From: a virus
Virus genome (UHGV): UHGV-0193111
Strand: one strand, 5' to 3'
DNA: 8,441 bases
Shown here one piece after another: positions 283 to 8,441 of the stretch; the first letter of the stretch is position 1, and every line of letters begins with the position of its first letter. The position numbers and the translations under genes were made by a program. A model generated the notes under the pieces. The model had not been told where the DNA came from, searched no databases, and saw only the letters and a list, made by a program, of their open reading frames with translations.

Positions 283-603
283 TCAGGCTTTTTCTAGCGT
301 ACACAGCAATGGATGCTCATTCTCCCTCGCGTACTTGTTCACCATCGCCACTTTGGTTTCTGCAACCTCGGCGGTAAAGACTCCGCAAATGGCCTTCCCC
401 TGGTAGTGAACAGCGAGCATCAATTGCGTTGCACGTTCTACATCATAAGAAAAGAATTTTTGTAACACGTCAATAACAAACTCCATCGGAGTGTAATCAT
501 CATTGACTAATATCACTTTATACATAGATGGCGGTTTTAGCGCGTCGCGAACTTTTTCTTCCGCCAGTTGATCAAAGTCCAGCCAGTCGTTCGTTTTACC
601 CAT
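283..603 (-). CDS. clpS: ATP-dependent Clp protease adaptor protein ClpS
   Basis: 106-aa ORF ([51 protein letters not shown]...) matches my recollection of E. coli ClpS over its full length. Correct size and position upstream of clpA. Confidence 0.95.
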
Positions 604-1430: not shown

Positions 1431-1712
1431 TTACCGCCGTAAGTGCTCCGGCTTCCTCCACTGGTAAGTATTTTTCGCGCTCTCCCTCCGTTGTTGAGAA
1501 CGGCGACGGTATGCCAGCAACTCAAGAACTCTGGTTCGTATGTTGCGCATATCCACGCCATTAAGTTCTATACCATCACGGCGCATCACCTCCGCAACAA
1601 CACGCGCATAATTTTCAGCGGTCACGCTGTCCGGCTGCATGGCCTGTTCGTCAACCTGCTGGCTGATTCCGGCAACGCGGCGGATTAATCCCAGTATTTC
1701 GGCTTCTGTCAT
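1431..1712 (-). CDS. Hypothetical protein, 93 aa, Arg-rich C-terminus (the ORF-track version extends to 1820 but would run across cosN)
   Basis: ORF-track ORF 1431..1820; I prefer the internal ATG at 1712 (MTEAEILGLIRRVAG...) because the longer form overlaps the cos site at 1768-1798. No family recognised. Confidence 0.35.
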   Translation of the reverse strand: MTEAEILGLIRRVAGISQQVDEQAMQPDSVTAENYARVVAEVMRRDGIELNGVDMRNIRTRVLELLAYRRRSQQRRESAKNTYQWRKPEHLRR

Positions 1713-1767
1713 TGTGCCCCCATCGTTCTGAAAGTCTGGTGTCGTCGGGTCCTTCCTGGAATTATGG

Positions 1768-1920
1768 CCCGTTACGGGGCGGCGACCTCGCGGTTTTTCG
1801 CTATTTATGAGCTTTTTCATGGGGGGGTGGTGGTTTTGTTGCTTGCTCTATCTCCATGAATAAAAAGGGAAAGATAACACCAACACACCAACCTGAAACC
1901 TTGACCAAGTTGGGATATTG
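1768..1920 (+). other. cos site 1: lambda-type cosN (cohesive-end sequence GGGCGGCGACCT at 1777-1788) plus a diverged cosB-like leader with tandem ACACCAAC repeat (1877-1892), directly upstream of terS
   Basis: 1768-1812 cccgttacggggcggcgacctcgcggtttttcgctatttatga is near-identical to the phage lambda left end and cosN junction as I recall it (GGGCGGCGACCTCGCGGGTTTTCGCTATTTATGA). Same position and orientation relative to the Nu1-like gene as in lambda. Confidence 0.8.
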
Positions 1921-2463
1921 ATGAAATCGCACCTGATGAACAAAAAAACCATGGCGCAAAGCTGCCGGGTAAGTGCTACAGCATTCGACAAGTGGGGAGT
2001 GACTCCCGTTGAACGTAAAGGCCGTGAGGCGTTTTATGATGTTGCCAGCGTGATAGACAATAGGGTTAACAATGCAATTAGCCAGCTTACAAACGACAAA
2101 GGCGAGATTGATGATGATGAACTCTTACGAGTCAGGATCAGATTACTGACAGCACAGGCGGAGGCGCAGGAACTTAAAAACGAGCGCGATCGCGGTGACG
2201 TGATTGATACAGAGTTTTGCATGTACGCGCTTTCAAAACTGGCGAGTCAGATTTCATCAATCATGGACAGCCTCCCGCTTACTATGCAAAGGAGCTTCCC
2301 ACACATTACCCCCGCTATGCTGGATGGGCTTAAAAGGGAAGTGGTTAAAGCCTGTAATGCCAGTGCCAGAGTTGCCGACAACCTCCCACAGATACTGGCT
2401 GATTACCTGAACGAAACAACCGGAAACGTACCGGAAAAGTTGCTACAGAAGAAAGGCGAGTAA
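1921..2463 (+). CDS. terS: Terminase small subunit, lambda Nu1-like
   Basis: Product aligns along most of its length with lambda Nu1 as I recall it (YDVASVI vs YDSAAVI; RLLTAQAEAQELKNERD vs RLTRAQADAQELKNARD; FCMYALSKLASQISSIMDSLPLTMQRSFP vs FCTFVLSRIAGEIASILDGLPLSVQRRFP; LKREVVKACN vs LKRDIIKAMN). ORF track starts at TTG 1918. First ATG is 1921; ATG 1936 (MNKK...) matches the Nu1 N-terminus MEVNKK best. Weak RBS for either. Confidence 0.85.
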   Translation: MKSHLMNKKTMAQSCRVSATAFDKWGVTPVERKGREAFYDVASVIDNRVNNAISQLTNDKGEIDDDELLRVRIRLLTAQAEAQELKNERDRGDVIDTEFCMYALSKLASQISSIMDSLPLTMQRSFPHITPAMLDGLKREVVKACNASARVADNLPQILADYLNETTGNVPEKLLQKKGE

Positions 2464-2487: not shown

Positions 2488-2663
2488 CTGAGAAACGACA
2501 TGAAAGCGTCATAAATCGCCATTTTAGATGATTACCGTGTCGTTTCTTTTTATTGTATATCTATTTAAAAACAAATAGTTATGTTCGAGAAGTACCGACA
2601 TGCTTTTTCCAGAAAAATTTTCATAAACAGATAAAAACCGCGAGGTCGCCGCCCCGTAACGGG
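2488..2663 (-). other. cos site 2 (inverted): lambda-type cosN (reverse complement of GGGCGGCGACCT at 2643-2654) with lambda-like cosB, including an inverted pair of R-site-like elements TGTCGTTTC (2538-2546) and GAAACGACA (2492-2500)
   Basis: 2633-2663 is the exact reverse complement of 1768-1798 (31 bp). The reverse complement of 2488-2640 parallels the lambda cosB region as I recall it (TTTATGAAAATTTTTCTGG; CATAACTATTTGTTTTTAAATAG; AAAAGAAACGACACGG; CATGTCGTTTCTC vs lambda TTTATGAAAATTTTCCGG; CATAACTTAATGTTTTTATTTAAAATA; AAAGGAAACGACAGG; CTCTGTCGTTTCC). Confidence 0.75.
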
Positions 2664-2686
2664 TCCATATGCCGGAAAGGACCCGT

Positions 2687-2710
2687 AAAAAAAAGCCGGA
2701 TTTCTCCGGC
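2687..2710 (-). terminator. Rho-independent terminator of the capsid operon (stem GCCGGA/TCCGGC, loop TTTC, followed on the minus-strand transcript by U8)
   Basis: Hairpin at 2695-2710 with A8 at 2687-2694 on the plus strand, immediately downstream of the 137-aa ORF stop (2717-2719). Confidence 0.6.
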
Positions 2711-2716
2711 CTTGTC

Positions 2717-3130
2717 TCAGATGGTTTTCAGTATGCGATCGATGTCGCCGTCATCGCCCTGGTTTCTGCCATCGTATGCCATGCCAGCTGATACGGCTTG
2801 CGGGCTGTGCATGTCCATAAAGTTTTCAAAGGCTGCGGTAAGCTCTGGTGCAACCTTTGGGCGCTCCTGCTCTATGGTCATGTTCAGGATTTCACGAGCA
2901 TTATCGACGCTAATACATGGCACGTTTGCCATTGCACGTAACAGCGGCTGATAGTCTTTATGCTCATGAAGCGCCATAATCGCATCAGCGCGCGGCTTGT
3001 CCTGCTCTTCCAGTTTGTTGAGTTGATATACGGCCTCGTAGGTTGATAAACCTCTGTCAGCCATTGCCCGCGCTTCTTCTTTAAATTTACTCGCCAGCGG
3101 TAGCGCCATGATGCTTTCATTCGTTGCCAT
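2717..3130 (-). CDS. Hypothetical protein, 137 aa, last gene of the capsid operon
   Basis: ORF with ATG at 3130 preceded by AGGGGGAA RBS, 12 bp after the decoration-protein stop; followed by a terminator. No family recognised; not obviously lambda FI or FII. Confidence 0.65.
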   Translation of the reverse strand: MATNESIMALPLASKFKEEARAMADRGLSTYEAVYQLNKLEEQDKPRADAIMALHEHKDYQPLLRAMANVPCISVDNAREILNMTIEQERPKVAPELTAAFENFMDMHSPQAVSAGMAYDGRNQGDDGDIDRILKTI

Positions 3131-3142
3131 CGTTCCCCCTGC

Positions 3143-3478
3143 TTATCGGGCCAGCGGCTGAACGGATACGCCGGAACCCGCAAAGGCGGCGCATTTTTTC
3201 GCATCGGTGTCGACGCTCTCAGGCCAGTTAACGGCGGCAATATTGAATATCCCCGTCTTGTAACACTGTGCTGATTTCTGCTTTGACGTGTCCACAGGAT
3301 ACGAAGTCAGATAAACAGCCTTGCCAGATTCCTGACCATCCCACGGCTTAAACTCGCCATTGTCCGCCAGCATCAGCGGGGTAAATTCCTGAATAACGCC
3401 AGCATCAGCGGCAAAATGTACCAGCGTCGTTGATACCTGCTGACTGCCTGCAAATAACTCAATGTATGGAGTGTTCAT
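3143..3478 (-). CDS. Head decoration protein, lambda gpD-like
   Basis: Product shares blocks with lambda gpD as I recall it (TPLML, WDG, YK-G-F, WPE, KK-AFAG, S-S-V) and has similar length (111 aa from ATG 3478; ORF track uses GTG 3487, 114 aa). Stop of the capsid gene lies 2 nt upstream of the GTG. Confidence 0.8.
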   Translation of the reverse strand: MNTPYIELFAGSQQVSTTLVHFAADAGVIQEFTPLMLADNGEFKPWDGQESGKAVYLTSYPVDTSKQKSAQCYKTGIFNIAAVNWPESVDTDAKKCAAFAGSGVSVQPLAR

Positions 3479-3489
3479 AGAATCCACCG

Positions 3490-4545
3490 TTAACCAATTT
3501 TGACGGTAACAAATTTGCGAATATCTGCCGGAACAGGCTGCGGTGCGCTGTGTGTCTGCACGTACTCAATCGCCGGATCGCCGTCTTCAATCCAGTTTTT
3601 CGGGTAAAACATGTTTTGCGTTGCGCCCGTTCTTACCGCTTCCTGTTCCATAATCGCACCATAGGCCACCAGCCCTTTATTGTTGGTGTTGCCCAGGACC
3701 AGCAAATCAGGCTCAAGGAAATATTTTTCTGTGCCGTCGCTGTCAGTGTATTTGCCGGAATAGACGATAAGGGCCAGATCACCAAGATAGCCTTTAAAGC
3801 TCACCACTTCTCCCAGGTTTTTACATGCCAGCTCTGCGGCGGATTCTGAACCACGGGAGAGATCGTACAGTTCACGGAATTTTTTAAAGCTGCGTAACAT
3901 GCGCCATACATCAACGCCCATAATCATGACGTTTGCGGGGCAACCTGCCTGATCTGCGTATAGCTCAATGTCATAGATTGGGTCGTGTATGTCTTTGTCC
4001 TGCTCTGACCATTTTTTACCGTCGGCCTGCTCTATGATGTTTTTTTCCGGTATCTTCCAGTCGATTTCATAGCGTTCTATGCCTTCGCCCTCAATGATGT
4101 TTTTTCCGGTCGTTATCGCATTCACCGCCATCCATTCCACGCGCGCTTTAATGGCGTTTATCTGGCGGCGCATGTTGCCAGTAATCAGGCGCATACGGCG
4201 GTAGGTAGGGTCGTTAAGCTGTGCCGGATCTTCTCCAGCCATGCGCATTATTGTTTTTAATGGATCGATTTCGTGTTTTGGCTTCATGTAGCCAGGGCGA
4301 ATAATGCTGGTTTCGTACCCTTTATCGCGCTGAACCTGGCTACCAACCATAGGCGAACAAAACGCCGACATAGTGACTTCTTCAATATCCAGGTTATCTA
4401 ACATGATGTCCTGTGTGTTGAATGTCGCCACGTTCGGGAAAAACAGCGCGGTAAACAGCGGACTGAATTTAAATTCCGCAATATCCTCGCGATTCAGGTA
4501 CGCGAAAAGCTGGTTAGTGTTAAGTGCCATTGCTTTGACTGCCAT
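3490..4545 (-). CDS. Major capsid protein, lambda gpE family
   Basis: 351-aa product shares many conserved blocks with lambda gpE as I recall it (FKF-PLF; PGY-KPKHE; DP-YRR-R; WS-RDK--DP-YDIE-YA; RSFK; GYLGD-A-VYSG-Y; LGNT--GL--YG-I; YPKNW--GDPA). ATG at 4545-4543 with GGGGGTGA RBS; start overlaps the stop of the upstream ORF (TAATG). Confidence 0.9.
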   Translation of the reverse strand: MAVKAMALNTNQLFAYLNREDIAEFKFSPLFTALFFPNVATFNTQDIMLDNLDIEEVTMSAFCSPMVGSQVQRDKGYETSIIRPGYMKPKHEIDPLKTIMRMAGEDPAQLNDPTYRRMRLITGNMRRQINAIKARVEWMAVNAITTGKNIIEGEGIERYEIDWKIPEKNIIEQADGKKWSEQDKDIHDPIYDIELYADQAGCPANVMIMGVDVWRMLRSFKKFRELYDLSRGSESAAELACKNLGEVVSFKGYLGDLALIVYSGKYTDSDGTEKYFLEPDLLVLGNTNNKGLVAYGAIMEQEAVRTGATQNMFYPKNWIEDGDPAIEYVQTHSAPQPVPADIRKFVTVKIG

Positions 4546-4988: not shown

Positions 4989-5399
4989 TCAGAACGGAAT
5001 ATCATCACCGTAGGGGTCATCGTCTCCCGCTGGTGGCTGATTACCCTGTGCGCCTGTGGTTTTGCGTCTGTTCCCGCCAGGACGTGCCGCACGGGCACTG
5101 ATTACGCTGTCTGCAATAACCTGATAACCCTGCCGCGTTTCCCCGTTCTGTCCGGTCCACTGGCTTATCTGCATCACGCCAGATATGCTGGCAACGTCGC
5201 CTTTTTGATGTTTAGCCAGGAAGTCGGCCTGCTTACCAAATGCCATCACCGATAGCCATAACGTAGCCGTTCCGTCATCTGCCTGGCTGCACGGAAGGGG
5301 GACCGCCATACGCGCCAGCGTCATCGGTGTGCCCTTGCTGGTCTGTTTTACCTGCGGGTCGTCCACCAGCCGCCCGTAAGCTGCTATCTGTGCTGTCAT
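4989..5399 (-). CDS. ssb: Single-stranded DNA-binding protein
   Basis: 136-aa product with an SSB-like OB-fold core (FGK...KGD...ISG...W...GE-R) and a Gly/Pro-rich linker ending in the acidic tail DDDPYGDDIPF, the hallmark SSB C-terminal motif. Start ATG overlaps the upstream ORF stop (ATGA). Confidence 0.85.
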   Translation of the reverse strand: MTAQIAAYGRLVDDPQVKQTSKGTPMTLARMAVPLPCSQADDGTATLWLSVMAFGKQADFLAKHQKGDVASISGVMQISQWTGQNGETRQGYQVIADSVISARAARPGGNRRKTTGAQGNQPPAGDDDPYGDDIPF

Positions 5400-5647
5400 G
5401 CTGTCTGCTCTCCGGTTTTAACGTTGATGGTTGTTACCTGTTCCGCTTCGGCAATCTCCCGCTCTGTCAGCGTGGCAAAATTTGCCGCCGCCGTGGTCAT
5501 GAATGCGCTTATCAGGTCGGGATGTTCCTTCGCGTATCCTTCCCGCGTGTGGCGGTCTATCGTTCTGATTGCCACCTTTAAGGTGTGCTCAGTCATGTCT
5601 AACGCTTTATATTTTGGCTCTGTTCTGTCTCTGCGTGTTCTGGTCAT
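5396..5647 (-). CDS. Hypothetical protein, 83 aa, translationally coupled to ssb
   Basis: ATG at 5647 with GAGGTGG RBS (ORF track starts 4 codons earlier at TTG 5659); stop overlaps the ssb start. No family recognised. Confidence 0.55.
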   Translation of the reverse strand: MTRTRRDRTEPKYKALDMTEHTLKVAIRTIDRHTREGYAKEHPDLISAFMTTAAANFATLTEREIAEAEQVTTINVKTGEQTA

Positions 5648-5660
5648 TTGCCACCTCAAT

Positions 5661-5999
5661 TTATATATATATATAGAAACATGTGCGGGTTATGCGGGTT
5701 ATTGGGTTATCTTAGCGTGCTAACCATTTTTTATCCTTTTATATCAGTATTTTGCAAAACACCCTGTTTATTATTTGCTCACCACGTAACCCGCAAAACG
5801 CTCAAAATAACCCGCAAACGGGGTTTTTTCTGCGGGTTACGCATGACTGTCCGGTGTTACTTCAGTTATTCGCCTGCGGGTTATAATCGTGCTTTTGCGG
5901 GTTATAAATGCCCTTTTGCGGGTTACGTGCGGGTTATTGGTTTCCTTTATATTCATGCACTTAATACACTTATACACAGGATAACCCGCATAACCCGCA
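5661..5999. repeat. Putative replication origin: iteron array of 11 perfect TGCGGGTTA 9-mers (plus strand at 5684, 5693, 5831, 5875, 5896, 5917, 5928; inverted at 5787, 5808, 5982, 5991) with AT-rich tracts including (TA)n at 5661-5676
   Basis: Repeats read directly from the sequence; several pairs spaced 21 bp (5787/5808; 5875/5896/5917), tandem pairs at both edges in opposite orientation. Located immediately downstream of the primase/helicase gene, as is typical for Pri-Rep plus ori modules of phage-inducible islands. Confidence 0.75.
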
Positions 6000-6021: not shown

Positions 6022-8145
6022 TTAATCTTCATCATCAGGCTGGAACATCAGCACGTAAAAAACATGCTGCTTACCCCCAATCTTGCCCAGCGCCTTTTTT
6101 TTGTATCGGCGATCGCTTCCCTTCTCCAGCATTCCGGCAGCATCCAGGGCACGCGCAAAATGCGCCGGATTAAATCCCTTCGCTATCTCACTATCAAACA
6201 CGTGCGGGAACGTGTAATAGCGCATCTCGTCATCTTCGTTGCGAATGCTCCCTTTTCTGTATCCGGCAAGCTCTTTAATCGGTAAATCACGCTCATCTGT
6301 ATTGGGGTACGGAAGGTAGCGGCTAAACCCAAACGACGACAAAAACGCCTCAGCCTGTTCAACCATCTGTTTAAATTCCCTGTTACCCGTGCCGAACTCC
6401 TTCACCCAGGCATTAAAGTTATGCTGTATCGCGTCGCAGCATTCCTGCACGACCCAGCCAGTTACATGACCGGAAAGCACAAGCGCGGCCTCCAGTATGG
6501 CGAAACGTTCACCCACGCGGTGGACCTGCTCGCCGTAACTCTCCGGTATCAGGTTGCGCCACCGTTCGCGGCATTCCCTTACCGTGTCCTTTGCCTCCTG
6601 CTGGTGGCCTGCCAGCCATTTAACCCACTCACGACCCGCCGCCCCGTGATTTGCTGTCCAGGCATCCTTTAACGCGTCAGCATGTTCCTTACCGTTGCTG
6701 TATTCGTGAAATTTCGTGGCTTTTTCCATCGGAACGTTAAGCAGTCGGACAAGCTGCCCCGCCTTAACTTTTATCCCCTCACTTTTGAGGAATGTCTCAA
6801 CGTCCATTTCTCCGGTGCTGATTGCCACCGTTCGCCAGTGTTTGATCTCCCTGTTGCCGCCATCCTTCGCCCCCTGCAATTTCCCTGAACCGTTAAACAG
6901 CGTATAAGCAGACGTTGACACTTCCCGCGCATTTCCGGCCTGGCCTATCTCATCCAGTGGTAAAAGCCCGTCATTATGGGCCTCGGCCTCATTGGCAATA
7001 CCTAACGCCGTGCCGTACCAGGTCAGCCGCTGCGCGTCCGGCTCTCCCCATAAACTTGATGCGATGTTCTGCGTGGTGGTCTTACCTGCCGATGACTGTT
7101 CGAAAAGATGCACCCCGAAGCCGTCAGCACCCACAAGGCCAATTAAAGGCGCTGCCAGTGACGTTGCCACACCCAGCATCATTGAGGCATTACCGCCAGC
7201 CAGCCGCGCCACGCTGTCGCGCCAGCCATCCGCCGTGCCAGCCACGGAATAACCGTTAATCGCGGCGCTTTTTCCGGTAAACAGGATCGGTTTTTCAGAT
7301 TCACCAATGATCGAACCGTCCGGCATGATGTACGCGCCAAAATGCCAGCCCGTTGTTGTGCTTAACTGCCATTCCTCATGGCTTCCGCTTAACTGCATCC
7401 AGTCCGCCAGGATTGCCCTGTATTTGCCGTTGGTTGTCACGTTCAGCCCGTGATCTTTAAGTAACCGCCAGCCGTCACGGTCGCCGATACCACCACACGG
7501 GATCGCCATTGTGATGACTTCATGGTTTGCGGTTTTTTTCCAGCGCATCACGCGGTAATGCTCTTTACCGATCGTCCCCGTTCCCAGTAGTTCAAGCGGA
7601 GAACATAACCACGTCTCAGGCCGGATAATTTCGCCTGACTGCTTATCCACTTTGGGCGTTACCCAGAAAACACCATCGGCGCGACTTTCAACGCGTGGCT
7701 TTAATTCGTCATCGCTATGACTTCCGGTATCTTTTTTCTTTACCGGAAGCTCAATAACCAGACCATCAGAAAGATTCTGCCGCTCACGGGCCAGATATTC
7801 GCGCCAGTTCTCCACCTTCTGAACGTGCATTCCATCAGGGTAAAAATTTGCATCCTGTACGCCTGCCGCCGCCAGCTTCTGACCAATCGCCTTGATCATT
7901 ACTGGCTCAAGATGTCCGGCCCTGAATATGCGTACTGATTTTCGGCCTTCCGGCACAATTTGCAGCTTATCCAGTTCGGCAAGTTGTTGCTCTCCAAGCC
8001 AGACAGGAGGCACGTTATCGCCAGCCAGTCGCCCGTCCTGTTCCTGCCACTGCTTCGCATGTGCCCACGCATCACTACCCGCAAAAATGATGACTTCCGT
8101 CATTTTGTCACGTGGCTGGTGTTTTAAATTTGGCGCTTTTTTCAT
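6022..8145 (-). CDS. Replication initiator of primase/helicase type (P-loop NTPase; Pri-Rep-like); exact family not resolved
   Basis: 707 aa from ATG 8145 with GGAGAG RBS (ORF track uses GTG 8160, 712 aa). Contains a Walker A-like SSAGKTT and a Walker B-like LLPLDE motif. Large size and position directly upstream of an iteron array. Start overlaps the stop of the upstream ORF (ATGA). Confidence 0.8.
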   Translation of the reverse strand: MKKAPNLKHQPRDKMTEVIIFAGSDAWAHAKQWQEQDGRLAGDNVPPVWLGEQQLAELDKLQIVPEGRKSVRIFRAGHLEPVMIKAIGQKLAAAGVQDANFYPDGMHVQKVENWREYLARERQNLSDGLVIELPVKKKDTGSHSDDELKPRVESRADGVFWVTPKVDKQSGEIIRPETWLCSPLELLGTGTIGKEHYRVMRWKKTANHEVITMAIPCGGIGDRDGWRLLKDHGLNVTTNGKYRAILADWMQLSGSHEEWQLSTTTGWHFGAYIMPDGSIIGESEKPILFTGKSAAINGYSVAGTADGWRDSVARLAGGNASMMLGVATSLAAPLIGLVGADGFGVHLFEQSSAGKTTTQNIASSLWGEPDAQRLTWYGTALGIANEAEAHNDGLLPLDEIGQAGNAREVSTSAYTLFNGSGKLQGAKDGGNREIKHWRTVAISTGEMDVETFLKSEGIKVKAGQLVRLLNVPMEKATKFHEYSNGKEHADALKDAWTANHGAAGREWVKWLAGHQQEAKDTVRECRERWRNLIPESYGEQVHRVGERFAILEAALVLSGHVTGWVVQECCDAIQHNFNAWVKEFGTGNREFKQMVEQAEAFLSSFGFSRYLPYPNTDERDLPIKELAGYRKGSIRNEDDEMRYYTFPHVFDSEIAKGFNPAHFARALDAAGMLEKGSDRRYKKKALGKIGGKQHVFYVLMFQPDDED

Positions 8146-8441
8146 TTCTGCTCTCTCCACGCGGCAATCATGTTTTTTAGTTCCTGTAGTTTTTTATCAA
8201 CATCCATACATGACACATGGTTATTTCTGGAAAGCGGGATTTCCCGCCTGAATCTGCTAATAAAGATCTCCACGTTCAGCGAACTAAGAAATGAATAGCC
8301 ATCACGGATAAAATACACACGGTCAAACATCAGTTCTTTTACCGTTACTCTGTTACCGTTCTTATCCAGATAAATAGCGCCGGGGATAATTTGGGGGTGT
8401 GCATAACCGCTGGCAGTCAAGCCAGATAAATATGTTCTCAT
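8142..8441 (-). CDS. Hypothetical protein, at least 99 aa; may continue beyond the window end
   Basis: Open frame runs to the window edge (an ATG happens to sit at 8441-8439); stop overlaps the primase start. No family recognised; not AlpA-like. Confidence 0.45.
   Translation of the reverse strand: MRTYLSGLTASGYAHPQIIPGAIYLDKNGNRVTVKELMFDRVYFIRDGYSFLSSLNVEIFISRFRREIPLSRNNHVSCMDVDKKLQELKNMIAAWREQK

Follow-up and report, generated by a model that had tools for sequence, protein, structure and literature searches.

The stretch of viral DNA analysed here (UHGV virus genome UHGV-0193111, 8,441 nucleotides, called the window below) is one end of a cos-type phage-inducible chromosomal island (PICI) of the EcCICFT073 family, inserted beside clpS. 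Its architecture is the already published cos1/cos2 layout of this family: copy A, the cos site at the start of terS, is the equivalent of cos1, and copy B, the inverted site beyond the end of terS, is the equivalent of cos2. We hold with moderate confidence that positions 1746-2685 form a packaging-specificity cassette, in which two complete cos sites (cosQ-cosN-cosB) face each other across the satellite terS. The explanation that we favour, without being sure of it, is that copy A is a private site, used via the satellite's TerS, and that copy B is a phage-type site, used via the terminase of the helper. It builds on the anatomy, the homologies, the alleles and the inversion observed here, and it takes the function of the two sites from EcCICFT073; which protein acts on which site we infer. 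Two different modes of packaging are thus probably open to the satellite. New in relation to the known layout are the substitution of terS for rpp together with a phage-type second cos, the series of second-cosB alleles, and the inversion of the cassette.

The element and its genes

The window (8.4 kb) begins in the host gene clpS and then enters an integrated phage satellite (Table 1). Besides the capsid, decoration and primase genes, an SSB and a DUF4222 protein were assigned by Pfam, and there are no tRNA genes in the window. Near-identical elements are found between clpS and cspD in Escherichia coli SCU-172 and N10, with a tyrosine integrase and small regulators at their far end. The full maps of the complete relatives contain neither a TerL nor a portal gene, and their only morphogenesis and packaging genes are those for the capsid, the decoration protein, a 137-aa protein and terS. 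A membership of the capsid-forming PICIs (cf-PICIs), which have a large terminase, portal, protease and head-tail connectors of their own, was rejected, since the relatives have no TerL or portal. When the window and the maps of the relatives are taken together, the gene set and order are those of a PICI (integrase, regulators, primase, ori, capsid, decoration and cos module). EcCICFT073, the prototype of the E. coli cos PICIs, has the identical gene order, including the capsid, decoration, 137-aa and 93-aa genes, and from this shared order and the maps of the relatives the element therefore belongs to the EcCICFT073 satellite family. The rpp gene of that family is missing, and terS occupies its slot.

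The 93-aa protein, here called geneX, is a constant neighbour of the cos cassette and is annotated as a 282-nt gene in SCU-172, N10, CFT073 and Nissle. It matches phrog_1561, which is of unknown function. The possibility that geneX is Rpp was rejected, since a PDB search gave no relative and RppA is a 144-aa protein encoded between the two cos sites of CFT073. An open reading frame of 129 aa at 1431-1820 (-) is geneX with a false N-terminal extension created by the ORF calling: the first 36 codons cross cos copy A, and the annotated homologues put the start at the ATG at 1712.

The 137-aa protein, on the other side of the cassette, resembles the C-terminal, scaffold-like part of the head maturation protease family, and the region of phrog_53 that it matches corresponds to a lambda Nu3-like scaffold. 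Hence the satellite may encode a scaffold-like protein without the protease, in addition to its capsid and decoration proteins, and with the portal absent as well.

Two repeat regions were also observed. Between the 3' end of the primase gene and an 87-aa ORF (5396-5659), positions 5684-5999 hold TGCGGGTTA-type repeat arrays with periods of 9 and 21, plus an inverted ATAACCCGC present twice; they look like the iterons of a satellite replication origin. Short tandem repeats at 777-842, ATTAACTACACC in 2.2 copies and a CACGAACAAC type in 2.9 copies, are situated between clpS and the end of the satellite; they might be part of the attachment region or of the intergenic DNA of the host.

Table 1. 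Position and strand of the features discussed in the text, with the basis of each assignment.
Feature	Position	Strand	Basis or remark
clpS (host)	283-603	-	
geneX, conserved 93-aa protein of unknown function	1431-1712	-	homologues are 282-nt genes
Left arm	1746-1822	+	cosQ core GGGTCCT (1747-1753), cosN, ~34 nt after cosN
Copy A cosN	1777-1788	+	exact lambda GGGCGGCGACCT; EcCICFT073 cos1 equivalent
Private leader, candidate cosB for the satellite TerS	1789-1920	+	
terS, full-length Nu1-family small terminase	1921-2463	+	Pfam Phage_Nu1 (frame 1918-2463), phrog_57
R1-like element	2488-2505	-	TTTCATGTCGTTTCTCAG on the - strand
R2-like element, inverted relative to R1 and R3	2535-2551	-	AAAAAGAAACGACACGG on the - strand
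I1-like segment (lambda IHF-site region)	2552-2586	-	alignment with lambda; putative IHF site
R3-like element	2587-2602	-	CATGTCGGTACTTCTC on the - strand
Right arm	2609-2685	-	cosQ core (2678-2684, -), cosN, ~34 nt after cosN
Copy B cosN	2643-2654	-	exact lambda sequence; EcCICFT073 cos2 equivalent
Terminator-like hairpin	2692-2713	-	directly after the 137-aa gene, just upstream of the copy B cosQ
137-aa protein, cassette neighbour	2717-3130	-	phrog_1999; phrog_53 positions 494-567 of 583
Decoration protein, gpD-type	3143-3487		Pfam
Major capsid protein, lambda gpE-type	3490-4545		Pfam
DUF927 primase	6022-8160	-	Pfam

Two opposed cos sites in inverted arms

The cosN of lambda is found as an exact match exactly twice in the window, once on each strand, and the two opposed sites are 866 bp apart. 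Two matches to the 12-mer at up to two mismatches also occurred in 26 of 200 shuffles, so such a pair is not rare taken alone. Both cosN are situated inside 77-nt inverted arms that are 81% complementary to each other, and the inverted cosQ-cosN pair flanks the specificity gene, i.e. the dual-cos arrangement of the family is present.

The two cos sites of EcCICFT073, cos1 and cos2, have been described earlier (Fillol-Salom et al. 2018 ISME J, PMC6092414; 2019 Mol Cell, PMC6739421). Either of them supports transduction when cloned, and transfer is lost only in the double deletion. The site needed with lambda and phi80 is cos1, and the heterocomplex of Rpp and TerS recognises only the cosB of cos1. 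Deletion of cos2 increased the transfer by lambda and phi80, so with non-cognate helpers a second cos can come at a cost. The cosB regions of both sites were called completely divergent from phage cosB, in a comparison with lambda and phi80 only (PMC6092414, PMC6739421). Two TerS-encoding E. coli islands were also tested in 2018, and their resident prophages did not mobilise them.

We placed cos1 and cos2 on the CFT073 genome from the sequences published in Figure S1A. On this map cos1 is directly upstream of rpp (c1503), and cos2 is inverted, downstream and next to the 93-aa gene. Among 50,697 phage records, the cos sites of PhiR12_1 to PhiR12_5 are 93.3% identical to cos2 over 179 nt, and this identity takes in every CCGGACAT repeat and extends as far as the Nu1 gene of the phage. 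By this homology, cos2 of EcCICFT073 is a true phage cos of the PhiR12 type, which appears to be a new finding. The resident helper prophage of CFT073 is of the 21 type, so the idea that the second cosB matches the resident helper is not supported in this strain, and a site that is read by a helper can therefore not simply mean the resident helper.

The inverted copy carries a complete phage cosB

The original prediction had placed the lambda-like cosB at the inverted copy and not at the terS-proximal one, and this was borne out. We compared the cosB regions alone (+35 to +200 from the start of cosN in lambda numbering, which is beyond the shared arm) with 500 dinucleotide shuffles. Copy B reached z = 16.9 against lambda, 29.4 against PhiR5_1 and 27.3 against the 21-type CFT073 prophage, and for each of the three none of the 500 shuffles reached its score, while z for copy A was at most 1.1 against the same phages. 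In a BLAST comparison with phages, copy B matched lambda (74%, E = 3e-18), but its best match is PhiR5_1 (85%, E = 5e-41). The nearest relatives are thus of the PhiR5_1 type, not lambda itself.

In a four-way alignment copy B is collinear with phage cosB all the way from R3, over the I1 region and the inverted R2, to R1. Its R core recurs 41, 96 and 141 nt after cosN, inverted at the second of these positions, and GAAACGACA (2492-2500) and TGTCGTTTC (2538-2546), which had been picked out as an inverted pair resembling R2 and R1, are the arms of a 19-nt inverted repeat. The motif CATAACT...TGTTTTTA of the I1-like segment is conserved in lambda, PhiR5_1 and the CFT073 prophage, and the cosQ region, ACGGGTCCTTTCC, has the lambda spacing and aligns without gaps with the same three phages. 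The distance between R2 and R1 is 37 nt in copy B, PhiR5_1 and the CFT073 prophage as compared to 26 nt in lambda, and the R core, CATGTCG(T/G)T, is that of PhiR5_1-like phages and intermediate between those of lambda and 21. The homology to the phages continues for about 20 nt past R1 and ends at the phage Nu1 start codon. Beyond this point copy B meets the stop codon of the convergent terS (2461-2463), just as had been predicted, and in the alignment no cognate Nu1 or terS follows R1. By homology, copy B is a full phage cosB (R3, an I1-like segment, R2 and R1), nearest to that of PhiR5_1-like phages and not to that of lambda itself.

The leader of terS is private to the satellite

Beyond cosN, copy A agrees with lambda at all but one position over about 22 nt and then diverges. 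The original prediction had stated both this limited match and a tandem ACACCAAC repeat at 1877-1892, which is indeed present. The other motifs in the leader are GGTGGTGGTTTTGTTG at 1826-1841, in the position equivalent to R3, and an inverted GTTGG at 1909-1913, which is 16 nt downstream of ACACCAAC and just before the start codon of terS. The leader is unrelated to that of copy B. A search of 50,697 phage records gave no real match, the sole hit being spurious (26 nt, E = 0.4), and a diverged phage cosB was rejected as an explanation on account of this result and the shuffle-level scores. We fetched 80 loci encoding close relatives of the window TerS, and the leader is highly conserved in all 80 of them. 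From these comparisons the leader of copy A is satellite-private, having no phage counterpart and being kept together with this TerS.

A position for R3 in PICI cos sites has been proposed by Murialdo and Feiss, and GGTGGTGGTTTTGTTG falls there (PMC9026076). They also proposed that the R3 bound by Rpp in EcCICFT073 cos1 is ACCACCACC, at bp 55-63 (PMC9026076). The terS-type leader has GGTGGTGG at bp 50-57 (within 1826-1841), which is the reverse complement of ACCACCACC in EcCICFT073 cos1 (locus L005, ~2613-2621). This may be a coincidence, or the two leaders may share a recognition element in opposite orientation.

Over 179 aa, TerS shares 36% identity with lambda Nu1; it matches phrog_57 (terminase small subunit), and its closest phage relative is gp1 of N15 (45%). 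The Pfam domain Phage_Nu1 covers aa 64-149 only. From this limited match and the identity to Nu1 it follows that the N-terminal, DNA-binding region has diverged from Nu1 and that the remainder is clearly Nu1-like, as far as can be judged from the amino acid sequence. A PDB sequence search with TerS gave nothing useful. That TerS is related to Rpp was rejected, since a BLASTP comparison with RppA showed no similarity (E = 1.3).

A group of IMG/VR loci (L063-L072, L074-L075, L079, L085-L086) combines this TerS family and this private leader with a different cosN, which has about five substitutions (e.g. ...GGCGGTGAGGTG...) and is located about 140 nt upstream of terS. Several of these loci sit in contigs of 22-60 kb. 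A different cosN beside an unchanged TerS and leader suggests that the satellite TerS/cosB pair works with helpers having another cohesive-end sequence.

The second cosB exists as a series of alleles

Cassettes with terS and two cos sites were found in 25 of the 80 loci, and with the window and Nissle 1917 this gives 27 cassettes to compare. Among them are at least three alleles of the second cosB, with identical flanks and with R3, R2 and R1 at the fixed distances of 41, 96 and 141 nt after cosN; the core sequences of R3, R2 and R1 change together from one allele to the next. Allele v1, that of the window, has the core CATGTCG(T/G)T and is closest to PhiR5_1 (85%) and lambda (74%). Allele v2, e.g. 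in locus L012, has CAGATCC(G/T)TTCT, the same R3/R2/R1 motif as SerU-LTIIb, and allele v3, e.g. in locus L032, has CATGTCGGnCC and is closest to phage 21 (80%) and IdasGreatGrand (84%). The cos2 allele of EcCICFT073, present in CFT073 and SCU-172, has CATGTCCGGTT and belongs with the PhiR12 group (93%). By these matches there are at least four second-cosB alleles when the PhiR12 type is included, each corresponding to a different lambdoid group, and this also appears to be new. That R3, R2 and R1 are replaced jointly while their positions stay fixed is the pattern of a functioning specificity determinant and not that of decay.

Many TerS-bearing relatives carry one cos only, so the second site is dispensable. 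In N10 (locus L004, 5900-6910), which has a single cos, the 93-aa gene comes directly after terS, and the second cos and its cosB are absent. A third type of cassette was seen in SCU-172 (locus L003, 10098-10609) and is present in about 44 complete genomes. It has neither terS nor an intact rpp, but a remnant of the 3' end of rpp and a PhiR12-type second cosB, and its private leader has diverged, with ACAACAAC and GGTTGTTGT replacing ACACCAAC and GGTGGTGGT.

Two proposed routes of packaging and possible roles of the second site

The original prediction had proposed two specificities, one site being read by a Nu1-type terminase of the helper and the other by the element's own TerS. Several results argue for this: the two leaders are unrelated, that of copy A is private and conserved in the 80 loci, the N-terminus of TerS is divergent, the second-cosB alleles match phages, and both cos sites of EcCICFT073 are functional with different cosB specificity (PMC6092414, PMC6739421). 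The part that has to be modified is the helper, which cannot simply be the resident one, given the mismatch in CFT073.

On the copy A route, TerS would bind the leader of copy A through its divergent N-terminal domain, and the Nu1-like C-terminal part would recruit the large terminase of the helper, which would then cut at cosN (1777-1788). This would give a satellite-specific initiation with packaging proceeding rightward. On the other route, copy B (cosN 2643-2654 and cosB 2488-2642, -) would be recognised directly by the unmodified terminase of a PhiR5_1- or lambda-like helper, and packaging would go leftward, opposite to copy A. Each route would end at the next cos of the same orientation in the concatemer, so that the products of both would be unit-length (or multimeric) molecules sharing the same 12-nt cohesive ends.

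The second cos is absent from many relatives, can be costly in EcCICFT073 and does not match the helper in CFT073, and other roles therefore have to be considered. One is that copy B is mainly an interference decoy, where the many copies of a helper cosB soak up the terminase or trigger unproductive cuts and so lower the yield of the helper. The PICIs of this family interfere strongly with helper packaging, the second cosB tracks the phage specificity groups as a decoy must, and two opposed initiation sites at this distance could hinder each other, which fits the gain in transfer after deletion of cos2. Nevertheless we find a decoy unlikely, because the interference of EcCICFT073 maps to rpp, and deletion of rpp restores the lambda plaques with no reported need for cos2. 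Furthermore, a terminase-binding site beside a perfect cosN and cosQ would also be packaged, which makes the two roles hard to separate.

It is quite improbable that copy B is a non-functional scar of the lambdoid recombination that delivered or exchanged the cos-terS module, kept between conserved sequences. Copy B still has an intact cosQ and cosN and three intact R elements with conserved spacing, the alleles have each retained a self-consistent set of R3, R2 and R1 matching a real phage group, which is not expected from decay, and the cloned cos2 of EcCICFT073 does transduce. A scar would agree with the many relatives of the N10 type in which the second cos is missing, with the lack of a cognate Nu1 gene after copy B, and with the transfer of EcCICFT073, which is not reduced by deletion of cos2.

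The cassette is inverted in the window

The arm-to-arm cassette was found in about 479 of 5,426 complete E. coli genomes (about 9%), including Nissle 1917 and ATCC 25922. In its usual orientation terS is co-directional with the 137-aa and 93-aa genes, and the private cos adjoins the 137-aa gene. Nissle 1917 and every scorable locus among the 80 IMG/VR loci have this orientation, and the flipped one was seen in none of the 80. In the window terS runs against these two genes, and it is the phage-type cos that adjoins the 137-aa gene, i.e. the cassette is flipped relative to its flanks, a rare state which appears not to have been described before. The same junction together with terS was found in five of the roughly 479 cassette-bearing complete genomes. 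These five form two groups, which differ in the site of insertion (clpS-cspD and yejO-narP) and in the second-cosB allele (v1 and v2), and by this comparison the inversion has therefore occurred at least twice. The cassette of the rpp type is also found in both orientations, in CFT073 and in SCU-172.

A comparison of the window with locus L008, which has an identical TerS and the usual orientation, puts the breakpoints within a core of about 31 identical nucleotides around cosN. Homologous recombination between the 77-nt arms is sufficient to explain the flips. Another route is conceivable: a cut at both cos sites would free the segment between them with the same cohesive end on either side, so that it could be joined back in both directions, and the terminase itself could therefore cause the flipping. 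The only recombinase gene in the mapped relatives is the integrase at the far end of the element, and none was found near the cassette.

That the inverted arms are a switch, by which flips of the cassette toggle the expression of terS and with it private as opposed to helper-type packaging, is very improbable, for although both orientations occur against the same flanks in terS-type (window as compared to Nissle and L008) and rpp-type cassettes, with two alleles at two insertion sites among the flipped terS-type ones and with breakpoints in the identical core, the flipped state is rare and lineage-bound, no invertase gene is located nearby, which also makes a programmed inversion unlikely, and sporadic recombination between the repeats is enough.

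The inversion can still affect the element itself. In the window terS faces the neighbouring operon, and a simple sigma-70 scan of the terS leader found no promoter-like site; TerS may therefore be poorly expressed in this flipped element, which may then depend more on copy B.

Implications for the helper range

The second cos of the E. coli cos PICIs has been unexplained since 2018, and with lambda and phi80 it looked dispensable or harmful. Among the papers searched, cos2 is mentioned only in the two from the Penades group. The review by Murialdo and Feiss from 2022 does not mention a second or inverted cos (PMC9026076), and a literature search for the PhiR phages by name gave no paper describing their cos sites.

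Returning to our preferred explanation, a private copy A and a helper-read copy B, it is tempting to extend it to the E. coli cos PICIs in general as a modular 'two-key' system, in which a private cos is combined with an exchangeable helper-type cos that sets the helper range. We regard this extension as possible but rather doubtful. The private cos would be read by the satellite TerS or by the Rpp-TerS complex, and the allele of the second cosB (PhiR5_1/lambda, 21, SerU-LTIIb or PhiR12) would decide which helpers package the satellite without any satellite protein. The helper-type cos would serve as a backup when the TerS of a helper escapes Rpp or its TerL refuses the satellite TerS. If this is true, the combination of a private and a helper-type signal widens the helper range and is a hedge against helper escape. 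It would bear on the spread of islands carrying virulence or defence genes among E. coli strains, on the prediction of helper range from sequence, and on the design of PICI-based delivery vehicles.

Comparison with known systems

The cos-type SaPIs, SaPIbov5 and SaPIbov4, resemble the window in that a satellite is packaged through the carried cos of its helper, and SaPIbov4 has been reported with two putative cos sites. The terminase system of the cos-type SaPIs is HNH-dependent. They differ in having a Gram-positive host and an unrelated terminase, and they do not combine a private cosB and a satellite TerS in one cassette. With the TerS of the pac-type SaPIs the likeness is that a satellite small terminase pairs with the large terminase of the helper so that satellite DNA is favoured, which in the window would follow from the Nu1-like C-terminal part of TerS. 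The difference is that the window has a cos system with defined ends, not headful packaging, and an extra site of the helper type.

The cosB and TerS specificity groups of lambda and 21 are known from the work of the Feiss laboratory (reviewed in Murialdo and Feiss 2022, PMC9026076). Copy B has cosQ, an identical cosN, R3, an I1-like segment, the inverted R2 and R1 in the lambda order, and the allele series of the satellites mirrors the specificity difference between lambda and 21 in the R elements, with one allele being of the 21 type. In contrast to the phages, copy B abuts the 3' end of a convergent, non-cognate terS and is not followed by a cognate one. It also differs from lambda in the longer R2-R1 distance, and its R core is between those of lambda and 21.

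The closest system is EcCICFT073 itself. It is of the same family and has the same neighbours (capsid, decoration, 137-aa protein and geneX), two exact lambda-type cosQ-cosN units inverted around a specificity gene, and a gene-proximal cos with a private cosB that is absent from phages. The window differs in three respects: a full-length terS of the Nu1 family is located between the sites where EcCICFT073 has rpp, the second cos is of the PhiR5_1/lambda type and not of the PhiR12 type, and the whole cassette is flipped relative to its flanks.
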